Source: a virus
Reading direction: 5' to 3' (one strand)
DNA length: 64,000 bases
Virus record (IMG/VR): IMGVR_UViG_3300049783_001607
Shown here: positions 376 through 41,771 of the stretch, piece after piece
How positions within the stretch are numbered: position 1 is the first letter of the stretch
How the letters are laid out: each line of letters begins with the position of its first letter
The notes under the pieces: generated by a model
The model's input: only the letters and a program-made list of their open reading frames with translations
Told to the model about the DNA's origin: nothing
The model's database searches: none
Program-made: the position numbers and the translations under genes

Positions 376-452
376 TCTAAGAAGTGAGAATCGAACTCAC
401 GAATCTCTTGTTTCCAAAACAAGCGGGTTCTTCCGTCTGCCCTAGCCCCTAG
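376..452 (-). tRNA. tRNA-Pro(TGG), atypical
   Basis: Acceptor CTAGGGG/TTCTTAG with three G-U pairs, anticodon arm CTTGT-TTTGGAA-ACAAG, T-arm GTGAG-TTCGATT-CTCAC. Confidence 0.85.
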
Positions 453-467
453 AATTTATTATAAACT

Positions 468-497
468 AAAAAAACCTTCTAAATTAATAGAAGGTTT
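468..497 (-). terminator. Intrinsic terminator (attenuator) immediately upstream of the tRNA array
   Basis: Minus strand reads AAACCTTCTA-ttaatt-TAGAAGGTTT and runs into a 7-T tract. It ends 15 nt before tRNA-Pro. Confidence 0.85.
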
Positions 498-526
498 CTT
501 TATGTGTTTAATTATGACAGTTAAAT

Positions 527-610
527 TCAGCCAAGATCGAGTACAAGATTCCTTCCATTGATTAACAACGGTTGTTCCAGTAATTCGATATGACGTAATG
601 ATCTGTTCAT
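527..610 (-). CDS. Putative attenuator leader peptide, 27 aa (MNRSLRHIELLEQPLLINGRNLVLDLG)
   Basis: ATG lies 4 nt after the TATATTTG box (leaderless) and TGA is at 527-529. It has 8 Leu plus H, E, E, Q and P codons and sits directly upstream of the terminator. Confidence 0.65.
   Translation of the reverse strand: MNRSLRHIELLEQPLLINGRNLVLDLG
545..559 (-). promoter_or_regulatory. Antiterminator segment inside the leader ORF
   Basis: AATGGAAGG-AA-TCTT (559 to 545) is complementary to AAGA-AA-CCTTCTATT (500 to 486), which covers the terminator 5' arm. 13 of 15 positions pair, including one G-U. Confidence 0.65.
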
Positions 611-614
611 ATTG

Positions 615-647
615 CAAATATACAATTATAGTTTAATATATAACTAA
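615..647 (-). promoter_or_regulatory. Bacteroidota sigma-A-type promoter for the leader/tRNA operon
   Basis: TTAG-N21-TATATTTG matches the Bacteroidetes -33 TTTG / -7 TAnnTTTG consensus. The -7 box is exact. Confidence 0.7.
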
Positions 648-690: not shown

Positions 691-1482
691 ATGGCCGATA
701 AACCTAACAGAATTAAAATTGATACTCATAGAGGGAAAGAAAATACTGCTTTCGGTAAGCATTCAAGAGTACCTTTTAATATAGAAGATCTTGATTCTAG
801 AAGTCTTTTAATCCTAGCTTTTATAGACATCGATCAATTTTTAGACTCGAAATTTAAAACTAAAAACATTAGACGAATTATAAGACTGGAGGATTTTTCT
901 TTTACTTTAGGTGTAAGTAAAAACACGGTTAAAAAGTGTTTAAAAGAATTGGAGACTAAAGAGTTAATAACTTCTACATATAAACACAGTGTAGGTACTT
1001 CGTATATATCTAATATAGTCAAACTGCATGTAAAATATCAAATAATAACTTACTCATTTATTTCTAGACAGGATTTATCTCATTCAGTAAAAGCTTTTAT
1101 ATTAAAGGTTATAATGCTTGGAGAAAATAGAATATCTAACATACGAAACGTTACAGCTTTAGTAAAAGAAACTAGTACTCCAAGAAGAAAAGTAAATGAA
1201 GTTTTGGACTCTTTGTTATTGCAAGGATATATATTGGATCATCCTACAGAAAAGTCAATTCAAATATTGGATGTATCTGGTATAATGTTAGATTCGGAAG
1301 AAAAGTTAATGCTTGAACACAGACAATTAAGAGAAGCCATATCTTTTTATGAAACTAATCTTCCTACTTTTAGTGAAGATGATACAGAAGAGATTTCTAG
1401 ATTAAAGTCTGAAGTAGGGAGACTACTTAAAAAAATAGAAATGATCCAAAATGGCAAAAGTAAAAATCATAAAAAGACATAG
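691..1482 (+). CDS. Winged-HTH DNA-binding protein (regulator or replication-initiator-like), with C-terminal coiled coil
   Basis: Two HTH-like segments (LEDFSFTLGVSKNTVKKCLKELETKELI and VTALVKETSTPRRKVNEVLDSLLLQGYI). Divergent from the tRNA promoter. Confidence 0.6.
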   Translation: MADKPNRIKIDTHRGKENTAFGKHSRVPFNIEDLDSRSLLILAFIDIDQFLDSKFKTKNIRRIIRLEDFSFTLGVSKNTVKKCLKELETKELITSTYKHSVGTSYISNIVKLHVKYQIITYSFISRQDLSHSVKAFILKVIMLGENRISNIRNVTALVKETSTPRRKVNEVLDSLLLQGYILDHPTEKSIQILDVSGIMLDSEEKLMLEHRQLREAISFYETNLPTFSEDDTEEISRLKSEVGRLLKKIEMIQNGKSKNHKKT

Positions 1483-4858: not shown

Positions 4859-7029
4859 TGAGAATAAGTGCAAAAACAAAGTACGATCGGTACAACAAAA
4901 ATAAACTTCCTTTTCTAAATAGGTCGGATGACAAAATAATGAATGGTCATTGGGATGTTACAGAAACAGTTGAATTTTTAACAGGTATACGTACAGGCGA
5001 GGAGGAAATAAGACTAAAAGATTACTTAGTCTATAGACCTTTGCCTAAAGCTATTACTGCTTTAACCGTAAAACCTGATGTACATCCGCAGAGCTATGAC
5101 ATGCAGATGTACTATAAGAAAATAAACAAGGCCATGGAAGAAGGAATCTATATAGGTTCTGAGTACTATAACCCTATGTTTTGTTTTTGGCTTATTATGT
5201 TTATGTTTGAAATCCCATTATATGATGACAAAGGTAACCCTCTAGACGGTTTTGAAGTAGGTAGACCTTTGTATTCTAATATTGATAGATACGTTTTTGA
5301 TCTTTTATGGAAAGGGTACAAAACTAGAAAGTACGGAGCCATAATGGGAGGAAGAGGTATAGGTAAATCTTTTATTACTGATTCTGTAATGGCTTGGTAC
5401 TATATGATTTTTGATAGCCAAGAGTTAATTGTATCTGCAACTTCTGATCCAATTGTAGAAGAAGCTTGGGATAAAGTTACAGACACTATTAAAGCCATAG
5501 AAAAAGAATACCCGGGATACAGACAAAAGCAAAAAACCAGCTCAACTAAAAAAATTGTAGCTGGAGAAGAGTATTTTGATAGTAATCACGATGAACAGAC
5601 AAGAGGGTCTGGTAACGAAATTAGAAGAATAACTTACGCAGATAATCCTAACGTTACAAGGGGTAGAAGACCTCATTTTCAACACATAGAAGAATTTGCA
5701 TCATTCCCGTCACACCCGTCAAAAGGATCTCTTAAAAATTGTTTGGGACAATCCAAAGGTTCTTGGAAAATAATGGGTTCTATTATGAAAGCTTTTGTAA
5801 TGTTGACTGGTACAGGGGGATCTGTAAATAATAAAGACGCTGAAGACGTGTTTACTAATCCACGAGGTTTTAATTTGCTTCTTGTAAACGAGTGGGGAAG
5901 AGAGACAGGTATATTTATTCCGGCTTATTTAAAGTATGGAGGAACATGGGAGCATTCTGGAGTACCTAATATTGAACTAGCTATGAGACAGCTGATTCAA
6001 TCTAGAAAAGATTTAGAGTCAGATCCTGTAGCATTTATGCAAGAATTACAAGAATTCCCTATAACATTAGAAGAAGTTTTTACTGTAACAGGTACAAATA
6101 TATTTAATCAAGACAAGATTGCTGAGCAGCTTACTAAATTAAAAGTGGCGACAGTTAAACCTTGGAAAGAAGGAAGACTTGACTATATAATGGATAAAGA
6201 AGGTAACCCTACCGGAGTAGAGTTTATAGAAGTTAGAGGAGGTAAAATTATAATTGTAGAGCCGCCAGATATAGAATCGAATGGCCAAATAATGAATAAT
6301 TTATATGTGGGCGGAGTGGATAGTATTGATCAAGGTAAAAAAGATTCTTTAGTAGACGGGTCTAAGCTAGCTGTAGCAATTAAAAAGCGTATATCTAATA
6401 ACATGTTTAGCAGGACTAGTCAAGTATACGTTGCATTTTATAATGAAAGATCTGACGATGTTAGATGGGATTATGAAAATGTACTTAAGCTGTCGATGTA
6501 TTACAACGCTAAGTTAAATATTGAGTATACCAAAATAAATATTATATCTTTTTTTAGGGATAAAGGTCAGTTATGGAGAATATTAAAAAGACCTTCTATT
6601 GCTATAGGGTCTAATGTCAGCGGCGCTAAAGCCAGTACTCTTTTAGGTACTCCTGCAACAGGTGCTGTAATCGATCACCAGGATCAAAAATTTGCGGATT
6701 ATATTGACGATTATTACTATCTAATTATGTATATTCCAGTTTTGGAACAATCTAGAGATTACTCTAGAGAAAAAAGGACTGCGTTTGATTTTGTTGTAGC
6801 CTGCGGATTAGCGGAACTAGCTGATGAAGATTTTTTAGGTAAGCCTGCTTCCACTACTGGTACAGCCTCAAGCGACCTTGCTATGATAGGTGTCTATAGA
6901 GATAGAAATGGTAAAAAAAGATGGGGGCCAATACCTAAAAAAGAAACCGAAATTACTTCTATTGCAGAAGAAGAATTACAGAGTGATAATAGCTCTGACG
7001 CATATAAATGGGTAGTTGATAGTCCATAG
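4858..7029 (+). CDS. terL: Terminase large subunit
   Basis: Walker A GGRGIGKS, Walker B HIEE, coupling motif TGTGG, RNase H-like GGVDSID and FDFVVA. Confidence 0.93.
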   Translation: MRISAKTKYDRYNKNKLPFLNRSDDKIMNGHWDVTETVEFLTGIRTGEEEIRLKDYLVYRPLPKAITALTVKPDVHPQSYDMQMYYKKINKAMEEGIYIGSEYYNPMFCFWLIMFMFEIPLYDDKGNPLDGFEVGRPLYSNIDRYVFDLLWKGYKTRKYGAIMGGRGIGKSFITDSVMAWYYMIFDSQELIVSATSDPIVEEAWDKVTDTIKAIEKEYPGYRQKQKTSSTKKIVAGEEYFDSNHDEQTRGSGNEIRRITYADNPNVTRGRRPHFQHIEEFASFPSHPSKGSLKNCLGQSKGSWKIMGSIMKAFVMLTGTGGSVNNKDAEDVFTNPRGFNLLLVNEWGRETGIFIPAYLKYGGTWEHSGVPNIELAMRQLIQSRKDLESDPVAFMQELQEFPITLEEVFTVTGTNIFNQDKIAEQLTKLKVATVKPWKEGRLDYIMDKEGNPTGVEFIEVRGGKIIIVEPPDIESNGQIMNNLYVGGVDSIDQGKKDSLVDGSKLAVAIKKRISNNMFSRTSQVYVAFYNERSDDVRWDYENVLKLSMYYNAKLNIEYTKINIISFFRDKGQLWRILKRPSIAIGSNVSGAKASTLLGTPATGAVIDHQDQKFADYIDDYYYLIMYIPVLEQSRDYSREKRTAFDFVVACGLAELADEDFLGKPASTTGTASSDLAMIGVYRDRNGKKRWGPIPKKETEITSIAEEELQSDNSSDAYKWVVDSP

Positions 7030-40642: not shown

Positions 40643-40661
40643 ATTGTTAGCTTTGTAATAT

Positions 40662-41771
40662 ATGAATTTAAATCAGTCTAAATATAAAAGTTTAAAGGCT
40701 AAAGTCTTTAATAATAAAAAAGCAGCTTATACTTTTGAGCAGACTTTATCTGCTGTTATGAGACAGTTGTTACCCCCTAATCAAGATTCTAATAAGACTT
40801 CCCAAAGTGCGCCTTTAAAAAATAAAGAAAACCAATCGGAGCAAAATAATAATAATACAGACAAAAGAATGAATGCCTTAGTAGAAAAGCTTTCTGAAAG
40901 CGAGAAAAAAAGTGCTTCGTCTGATAGCAGATATAAAAAACAAATTGAAGGGTTAGGGAAAAGAATTTATGCTGGAGACAAGGAGAACTTAGAGCTGAGT
41001 AACAATCTTAAAAAAGCTATTGAAAATATAAAATCTAAAAAAGTCGAGGATTCAAAAGTTGCTACTGAAGAAAACAAAGAAACTCAGAAAAACTCCGAAA
41101 CTTCGGAAGACGATTTATCTAAAGCAACTATGTTACCATCTAATCCATATACTTTGGGAGATCCTACAGGGCTGTTTGAACCTGCGGATATTAGTAGCCC
41201 GTCGTTACAAAAAGTGGTTGAAAGATCTTTTGCCATAGATGATTATTTTAAAGTAGGTAAATATAAGTATCGAGTTTCAAATACTTTTGGATTACGAAAA
41301 GGCGCTAATGCTGTTACAGGTATAAGTACTAATGCTCATTCAGGAGGAATAGATTTAGTAGGATACAATGAAAAAGGAGAAAATAATAATTCACCTATTT
41401 CACTTACAAATGGTACTATATTAGGAGTTGTTAGAGATGGGGACGGATCTGTAATTAAACCGGAAGAAGGGGCTTTTGGAGGTTATATGATAAGAGTTTT
41501 AATGGACGACGGAAAAATAATGACTTACATGCATTTAGGAAAAGATGTTTGGGATCAAAGAAATAAATTGAGAGGTAAAAAAATAAATAGAGGAGATTTA
41601 TTGTTTGAAGGAAATAATTCGAGTGGATCCGGTTCTCAAACAGCTCCTCATACAAAAGTAAGAGTTTCTTCTAGAGGATTAAATGGAGGTGTGCTTCAAG
41701 ATCACAAAGAACCTATAAATGATCCTACTATATACGCTTTACATGGAGAATATATTGCGCCAGAGGAATAG
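40662..41771 (+). CDS. Coiled-coil plus M23 peptidase-like protein
   Basis: FG.R..HSGGIDL, FGGYM.V, YMHL, I.RGD and SG..TAPHTK. Confidence 0.65.
   Translation: MNLNQSKYKSLKAKVFNNKKAAYTFEQTLSAVMRQLLPPNQDSNKTSQSAPLKNKENQSEQNNNNTDKRMNALVEKLSESEKKSASSDSRYKKQIEGLGKRIYAGDKENLELSNNLKKAIENIKSKKVEDSKVATEENKETQKNSETSEDDLSKATMLPSNPYTLGDPTGLFEPADISSPSLQKVVERSFAIDDYFKVGKYKYRVSNTFGLRKGANAVTGISTNAHSGGIDLVGYNEKGENNNSPISLTNGTILGVVRDGDGSVIKPEEGAFGGYMIRVLMDDGKIMTYMHLGKDVWDQRNKLRGKKINRGDLLFEGNNSSGSGSQTAPHTKVRVSSRGLNGGVLQDHKEPINDPTIYALHGEYIAPEE

Follow-up and report, generated by a model that had tools for sequence, protein, structure and literature searches.

How are the tRNA arrays of large phages switched on and off? 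The question is raised by a locus at positions 376-647 of a 64,000-nucleotide stretch of viral DNA (IMG/VR record IMGVR_UViG_3300049783_001607; the whole stretch is called the window below), where a short open reading frame (ORF) and a terminator stand before a series of tRNA genes on the minus strand. A sequence-only reading, made without database searches, had proposed that translation of the short ORF decides whether the tRNA genes are transcribed. The present analysis points to a more specific answer: this leader cassette is probably a ribosome-mediated transcription attenuator of the trp/his/ilv type, which senses the decoding of its own tRNA set and heads the first of three tRNA operons.

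All of the parts named by the sequence-only reading, namely the promoter, the 27-codon ORF, the terminator, the order of the tRNA genes and the mutually exclusive pairing, were recovered at the same positions (Table 1). An extended contig, L032, adds 10 kb beyond the window start. There, the gene that had been taken for a probable leucine tRNA could be identified as such, and it is followed by Leu(UAA) and then Arg(ACG). Relatives were fetched via the neighboring protein, which resembles helix-turn-helix (HTH) and DnaD proteins, and via the large terminase subunit (TerL), and ten distinct lineages were aligned. A pattern scan for the terminator matched one relative twice and led to a second cassette directly before tRNA-Ala, which the window's own phage shares with four relatives. 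Cassette 2 comprises a TAyATTTG promoter, an A-rich untranslated region of about 30 nt, an ORF of 26-27 codons starting with GTG (ATG in the window's phage), the same purine block as cassette 1 (in another frame in the window's phage), the ACAUA word, the terminator and a T-tract, with tRNA-Ala immediately after. A third cassette stands before tRNA-Tyr.

The tRNA genes fall into three blocks, one behind each leader (lists from ARAGORN with relaxed settings), and between them the three cassettes account for all 20 amino acids; tRNA-Arg(UCU) is assumed to be co-transcribed with block 2. The earlier claim that the leader controls the tRNA array would hold for the first seven tRNAs, and the rest of the approximately 25 would not be gated by leader 1. 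Similarly, the Asn, Arg, Ser, and Ile tRNAs expected in the rest of the array are all encoded and Arg(ACG) does lie in block 1, but the Asn and Ser genes belong to block 3 and the Ile gene to block 2, where leader 1 would not sense them. Three ORFs of 158, 108, and 64 aa lie among tRNA block 2, tRNA-Arg(UCU), and leader 3 (L032:6675-7270 and 5993-6510, minus strand). In one relative, an ORF resembling an HNH endonuclease (CPNCHRLVHE motif) separates the leader-3 terminator from tRNA-Tyr by about 520 nt (L045:1800-2335, minus strand), which may reflect the insertion of a homing-endonuclease gene into this tRNA operon.

The strongest evidence for the attenuator is the agreement between leader codons and the tRNAs encoded behind them. 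The predicted peptides of the window's phage are given in Table 1 for leader 1, and are MKTIMNIAVTVKTGRDQALWKDVICG for leader 2 and MKVTSWSYSNFCNSFYNGSDELFG for leader 3. Over codons 4-16, the residues served by the leader's own block number 11/13, 11/13, and 12/13 in leaders 1, 2, and 3, or 34/39 in total, and the match over the same codons is 79-87% in three other phages. Contingency tables over the whole peptides gave p values from 4e-8 to 0.014. When the 20 amino acids were divided at random into sets of 6, 8, and 6, the observed match was not reached in any of 200,000 partitions for any of the four phages. For leader 1, the residues P, E, Q, H, L, and R fill 11 of the 12 positions at codons 5-16 while making up 25% of the window proteome; this score was reached by 7 of 200,000 random peptides (p about 3.5e-5) and, among the window's 82 natural short ORFs, by the leader itself alone.

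The codons also follow the gain and loss of tRNA genes. Leader 1 has UUR leucine codons in all five lineages with tRNA-Leu(UAA) and in none of the three lineages without it, where the Leu codons are all CUN, and CGN arginine codons go with tRNA-Arg(ACG) save for one exception. Two lineages (L016 and L036) have two proline (CCN) codons and two tRNA-Pro genes, and a third (L038) has two proline codons and one tRNA-Pro gene. Leader 2 contains an AGA codon, or a Lys codon later than codon 2, only in lineages that have tRNA-Arg(UCU) or tRNA-Lys, respectively. The sensor of leader 3 keeps its composition among lineages while its order differs (SWSYSNFCNSFYN, CSYSNYNFWS, SCSYNSFNSWFF, and CSYNNFSSWSF), and this composition predicted Ser, Cys, and Trp tRNAs that ARAGORN had missed with default settings. 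The two tRNA-Ser genes (UGA and GCU; L032:5487-5661, about 3.65-3.8 kb before the window start, and also L045:1400-1620) are atypical: default ARAGORN and the Rfam tRNA model both miss them, and one scores weakly as tRNA-Sec-like. In relatives, tRNA-Trp and tRNA-Cys likewise need relaxed thresholds.

The shared segment-1 word (U)UCAUAUA (UUCAUAUA) encodes His-Ile in leader 1 and Ser-Tyr in leader 3. As the word is shared but read in different frames, the three leaders appear to be paralogues of one RNA switch that was re-framed for other sensor codons.

The sequence-only reading expected the leader to recur upstream of related tRNA arrays, and the cassette is indeed kept directly upstream of tRNA-Pro in ten lineages, whose HTH proteins are 59-82% identical to that of the window. 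The TAyATTTG promoter is invariant in all ten and is followed by an ATG after 4-7 nt. A TTTG, GTTG, or TTAG stands 18-22 nt upstream of the box in the window, L002, L016, L028, and L029 (read by eye in the first five lineages fetched). The leader ORF has 22-29 codons, the word ACA(C/U)AUA is conserved, the CCUUCU of the terminator 5' arm is invariant, and the T-tract lies 6-17 nt from tRNA-Pro. No TAnnTTTG box lies between the terminator and tRNA-Pro in the ten lineages, including positions 468 to 452 of the window, where the earlier reading had considered a promoter; since no box fits a gap of 6-17 nt, a separate promoter for the tRNA genes was rejected. Pattern scans of IMG/VR for the leader returned the same three lineages only, besides unrelated TATATTTG-ATG matches, which were discarded.

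Two more distant relatives found through the HTH gene (L041 and L043) have no tRNA array at the corresponding position, which shows that not every member of the wider group carries the cassette; a TerL relative at 66% identity (L014) has no tRNAs within 9 kb upstream. In place of the tRNAs, the HTH gene of L041 (790-1000) and L043 (355-545, both minus strand) is preceded by about 190 nt of GC-rich sequence. This segment contains the shared blocks CAGCCCT, CTAACA..AACAGGG, and ACTG.ATCCC, shows many compensatory pairs in a two-sequence alifold, matched no Rfam family, and may be a structured RNA of a new kind.

A second line of evidence comes from alternative pairings of the leader RNA. In the minimum free energy folds of all ten lineages, segment 1 pairs with the GUAUG-type region around the Val codon (544-536 in the window), and the resulting 1:2 helix encloses a small hairpin. 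The core of this helix is 78% paired with little variation, and the hairpin has 90% of its alignment cells paired and compensatory changes at four of its seven pairs. The antiterminator (2:3) consists of two parts, in which the purine block pairs with the terminator 5' arm, and GUAUG with ACAUA; ACAUA is complementary to the GUAUG of segment 2 in lineages other than the window's. The two mutually exclusive structures described earlier are therefore present, and the switch is richer than described, with the 1:2 helix and the second antiterminator sub-helix added.

The 2:3 pairing was assessed by per-sequence duplexes against shuffled controls, since the MAFFT columns offset the purine block by 1-3 positions in some rows. 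Its duplex energies range from -12.5 to -21 kcal/mol across all lineages. In the window, codons 18-22 (559-545) pair with 501-487 (long form from 559-544, -12.5 kcal/mol in RNAduplex), and the core duplex with the terminator arm (-8.6 kcal/mol) beats 98.4% of dinucleotide shuffles. Over the ten-lineage alignment, 91.6% of cells are paired, compared to 35-54% when the partners are slid. Six pairs show compensatory changes, a count matched by 1 of 500 shuffles, and most of them lie in the small hairpin. The terminator has 99% of its cells paired and its sequence hardly varies. A terminator sequence recurring throughout the genome was considered as the cause of the invariant CCUUCU arm and was rejected, as the hairpin occurs once in the 64-kb window; in relatives, it is found at leader 1 and leader 2 only.

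The paralogous cassettes extend this comparison. The terminator 5' arms recorded among the cassettes are ACCUUCUA, AUCCUUCUA, AGAUCCUUCUA, GCUCCUUUC, AGGCUCAUU, and AAGUCUUGCA, and five different arms are each matched by a complement of their own in the leader ORF, a few codons before the stop (such as GAUGAGCU in leader 3 of the window's phage and GCAAGACU in leader 3 of L016). When the 3' part of the ORF was dinucleotide-shuffled, the native arm duplex proved the stronger one in at least 93% of comparisons for 17 of the 19 leaders.

Table 1. Leader cassette 1 and the tRNA genes behind it, followed by the paralogous cassettes and the three tRNA blocks. Positions are those of the window unless L032 is named, and all coordinates of cassette 1 refer to the minus strand.
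Feature	Position	Strand	Basis or remark
Promoter box, Bacteroidota-type -7 element, TATATTTG	622-615	minus	read from the sequence
Possible -33-like element, TTAG	647-644	minus	21 nt upstream of TATATTTG
Leader ORF 1, 27 codons plus TGA (529-527), peptide MNRSLRHIELLEQPLLINGRNLVLDLG	610-527	minus	ATG at 610, 4 nt after the promoter box
Sensor stretch, codons 5-16 (L R H I E L L E Q P L L)	598-563	minus	11/12 read by tRNAs of the following block
Segment 1, CAUAUCGAA, His-Ile-Glu codons, CAUAUnGA type	592-584	minus	5' arm of the 1:2 helix
Small internal hairpin, CCGUUG (571-566) with CAAUGG (560-555)	571-555	minus	RNAalifold consensus
Segment 2, purine block AAUGGAAGGA (559-550; GGAAGGA 556-550) plus AUCUUGUACUCGAU	559-536	minus	pairs with segment 1 or segment 3
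Segment 3, ACACAUA motif (507-501) plus terminator 5' arm AAAGAAACCUUCUAU (501-487)	507-487	minus	conservation and complementarity
Intrinsic terminator, hairpin 502-488 with 481-467; core 497-489 with 480-472; seven T at 474-468	502-467	minus	folding
tRNA-Pro(UGG), first gene of block 1	452-375	minus	ARAGORN; Rfam 32.7 bits; 15 nt after the T-tract
tRNA-Glu(UUC)	342-270	minus	ARAGORN
tRNA-Gln(UUG)	259-188	minus	ARAGORN
tRNA-His(GUG)	153-80	minus	ARAGORN
tRNA-Leu(UAG), first 20 nt inside the window	from 20	minus	identified in the extended contig L032
Cassette 2	L032 8750-8925		about 390 nt before the window start; precedes tRNA-Ala
Cassette 3	L032 5757-5928		precedes tRNA-Tyr; also in three relatives
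Block 1: Pro, Glu, Gln, His, Leu(UAG), Leu(UAA), Arg(ACG)			leader sensor LRHIELLEQPLL
Block 2: Ala, Lys, Ile, Gly, Met, Met, Asp, Thr, Val, Arg(UCU)			leader sensor KTIMNIAVTVKTGRD
Block 3: Tyr, Ser(UGA), Ser(GCU), Asn, Cys, Trp, Phe			leader sensor SWSYSNFCNSFYN

The attenuator logic and the multi-codon sensor put forward by the sequence-only reading thus gain support from the conservation in ten lineages, two paralogous cassettes, the co-variation of codons and tRNAs, and the five arm complements. In the proposed mechanism, the host RNA polymerase would start at the TATATTTG promoter, and a ribosome would translate the 27-codon leader from its 5'-proximal AUG. Codons 5-16 would be decoded by the tRNAs encoded downstream, that is Pro, Glu, Gln, His, Leu(UAG), Leu(UAA), and Arg(ACG). 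If decoding of any sensor codon were slow, the ribosome would stall over segment 1 and free segment 2 (GGAAGGA and its flank) for pairing with segment 3 (ACAUA and CCUUCU); the terminator would not form and the polymerase would read into the tRNA genes. If decoding were fast, the ribosome would cover segment 2 or be released, the 1:2 and 3:4 helices would form, and transcription would stop before tRNA-Pro. The outcome would be negative feedback, with each tRNA set made on demand.

Folding with a masked ribosome is consistent with much of this scheme. Transcripts were cut just before the terminator 3' arm and a 29-nt ribosome footprint was made unpairable. The predicted probability of the antiterminator was 0.6-1.0 with the A site at codons 2-14 in leader 1, 2-17 in leader 2, and 2-16 in leader 3, and the antiterminator was blocked for about 10 codons beyond this productive range. 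In each leader, the productive stall range coincides with the codon-matched stretch. A ribosome at the stop codon blocked the antiterminator in the short-ORF forms (L016, L038, and L042).

Several observations weigh against the attenuator or limit it. In the long-ORF forms, including that of the window, a ribosome at the stop codon leaves the purine block free, with a predicted antiterminator probability of 0.75-0.99. Equilibrium folding of the ribosome-free RNA also yields the antiterminator in several lineages, above all for leader 2, so the rule that no translation gives termination is not general. The OFF state of the long-ORF forms would therefore be a kinetic question, which equilibrium folding does not cleanly predict, and the earlier expectation that fast translation masks the antiterminator fits the short-ORF lineages and is not clearly predicted for the long-ORF ones. 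The position of the stop codon is not conserved and varies from codon 23 to codon 30. Covariation in the 2:3 helix comes mainly from the paralogues, because the terminator and purine block of leader 1 are mostly invariant. Ile in leader 1 and Asn in leader 2 fall outside their own blocks; both mismatches were probably forced by the shared RNA word CAUAU. One CGA codon in L016 stands without tRNA-Arg(ACG). Finally, a leaderless start at 610 is suggested by a single feature, the box-to-ATG spacing of 4-7 nt, and only one other gene within the window has such a short spacing.

Even if the attenuator operates as proposed, its natural signal would have several candidates. A shortage of decoding could be due to a mismatch between codon demand and host tRNA supply, to lost host tRNA synthesis, or to defence nucleases. 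A broader interpretation, which we offer tentatively, is that phages carry closed-loop controllers of tRNA supply, in which the translated sensor of each operon samples the decoding of its own tRNAs and repairs shortfalls, nuclease cleavage included, and that the leaders evolve by duplication and re-framing of one RNA switch.

The rival that survives best keeps the attenuator and gives it a counter-defence role, with tRNA synthesis turned on in response to cleavage of tRNAs, whether of the host or of the phage, by anticodon nucleases or by other defences that deplete tRNA. Infection can be rescued by phage tRNAs from host defences that target tRNA. A sensor that reads many codon classes in parallel would notice cleavage that affects any one class, and a replacement tRNA helps when the tRNA is lacking, not when the amino acid is lacking. 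We nevertheless regard this role as rather unlikely, as the coverage of all 20 amino acids extends beyond the known nuclease targets, and the sequence cannot separate the role from the demands of an AT-rich phage codon usage on host supply or from a shutdown of host tRNA synthesis.

It is highly improbable that the leader is a structured non-coding RNA or small RNA, or that its terminator is opened by a phage or host factor (processive antitermination, or binding of a protein or tRNA), with the ORF being incidental. Such an RNA would account for the strong fold (-40.8 kcal/mol, z = -5.0 compared to shuffles), the conserved helices with some compensatory changes, the GNRA terminator loop in 4 of 5 lineage types, and the high conservation at the nucleotide level. 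However, an Rfam cmscan of positions 1-1500 with E values up to 1 returned tRNAs and chance matches only, and no known family, the T-box included, matched the leader, which at about 110 nt is far below T-box size. The leader frame contains no stop over at least 22 codons in all ten lineages, whereas the other two frames have 12 and 16 stops in the same columns. The frame is open in all nine paralogous leaders as well, and the start codon of leader 2 varies between ATG and GTG, as is typical of genuine start codons. Matching of codons to tRNAs is not explained by an RNA that is not translated.

The open frame does not make the ORF a gene in its own right. The pN/pS ratio is 0.48 in the leader frame compared to 0.61 and 0.81 in the off-frames; a frame that is kept open around a weakly constrained peptide resembles a regulatory leader peptide, unlike a functional micro-protein. 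The purine block is kept while the peptide that it encodes varies (NGR, NGG, SGR, KGR, and DRR), and constraint there thus appears to act on the RNA. A conserved functional micro-protein was rejected on these grounds, together with the conserved RNA words that are read in different frames among the leaders. An independent micro-protein gene with a leaky terminator, whose tRNAs arise by passive read-through with no control of termination by translation, is the least credible reading, since the conserved ATG and open frame, the recurring residues (HIE, PL, and NG), and a hairpin and T-tract like those of an ordinary terminator leave unexplained the codon-to-tRNA matching of three paralogous peptides, the codons that track tRNA gene gain and loss, the scrambled order with kept composition, and the complementarity of the 3' part of each ORF to its own terminator arm. 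Neither the micro-gene nor the factor-controlled terminator nor the non-coding RNA explains codon-to-tRNA matching together with co-variation, which makes all three unlikely and favors the attenuator.

The phage that carries these cassettes is best described as uncultured, distantly Crassvirales-like, and about 160 kb in size. Its TerL matches phrog_6681 and its portal protein phrog_6547, both crAss-type PHROG families. In a tblastn search with TerL, the matches that covered most of the protein were records of crAss-like phages at 24-27% identity, and many Bacteroides, Flavobacterium, and Cellulophaga phages were among the 116 records overall. Giant ORFs stand at the end of the 64-kb window, and the exact neighboring protein also occurs on contigs as long as 163 kb. 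The promoter type, TAnnTTTG, suggests a Bacteroidota host for this marine group. A search of INPHARED phage DNA gave matches to tRNA-Glu only and did not find a close relative.

Some features of the surroundings can be added. The divergent neighbor of cassette 1 (window 691-1482, plus strand) encodes a conserved protein of 263 aa with weak matches to winged-helix HTH and DnaD-like domains. It overlaps by 32 nt an ORF of 274 aa with faint T5orf172/MUG113 (GIY-YIG-like) matches; the pair spans 691-2275 on the plus strand and is syntenic in all relatives. The 141.6-kb contig of one relative breaks off 9 nt before the start of the HTH gene, precisely at the leader/tRNA region (L035:1-10); repeated leader and terminator cassettes may break assemblies at such a point. 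Elsewhere in the window, a TAnnTTTG box lies 6 nt before the ATG of an ORF of 369 aa (box region 40648-40664, ORF 40662-41771, plus strand), making it a second candidate for a leaderless mRNA, and the remaining boxed genes have spacers of 33-38 nt.

Full-text literature searching did not find leader-peptide attenuation of tRNA genes described. As far as was found, this type of control is known only for protein-coding operons, namely those for amino acid biosynthesis, aminoacyl-tRNA synthetases, resistance, and a few other functions. If the present interpretation is true, it would explain how tRNA arrays are regulated in large phages, and would open to experiment a connection of phage tRNAs with the depletion of host tRNAs, be it by codon mismatch, synthesis shutdown, or anticodon nucleases. 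The leaders would also be natural multi-input sensors of codon speed that could be reused as reporters of decoding capacity. For annotation, a mini-ORF that spells the tRNAs behind it could serve as a marker of the operon start and predict which divergent tRNA genes to expect.

T-box riboswitches (RF00230) offer one comparison, as both they and the proposed phage system couple the state of specific tRNAs to read-through via competition between a terminator and an antiterminator. T-boxes bind uncharged tRNA directly and need no translation, are about 200 nt or longer, carry Specifier and T-box motifs, and regulate aminoacyl-tRNA synthetase or amino acid genes. The phage sensor, in contrast, would be a translated ORF, and it has no T-box match.

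The closer relatives in design are the leader-peptide attenuators of enterobacteria, such as trpL, hisL, leuL, and pheL, and the multivalent leaders of ilvGMEDA (Ile, Val, and Leu codons) and thr (Thr and Ile). Shared features are a promoter-proximal short ORF rich in test codons, exclusive 1:2, 2:3, and 3:4 helices, an intrinsic terminator just before the regulated genes, and an antiterminator favored by stalling at the test codons; like the ilvGMEDA and thr leaders, one phage leader would sense several classes of amino acids. Unlike them, the phage leaders are phage-encoded, have a Bacteroidota-type promoter and, in leader 1, a 5'-proximal AUG, and show no similarity in sequence or Rfam family. 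Each phage sensor spans 6-10 amino acid classes with one to four codons each, compared to runs of one or two classes in the amino acid operons, and three paralogous cassettes partition all 20 amino acids. Above all, the phage leaders would regulate tRNA genes, and the loop would close on tRNA supply rather than amino acid supply; as the regulated product is the very molecule consumed by the sensor, the feedback on tRNA supply would be direct.

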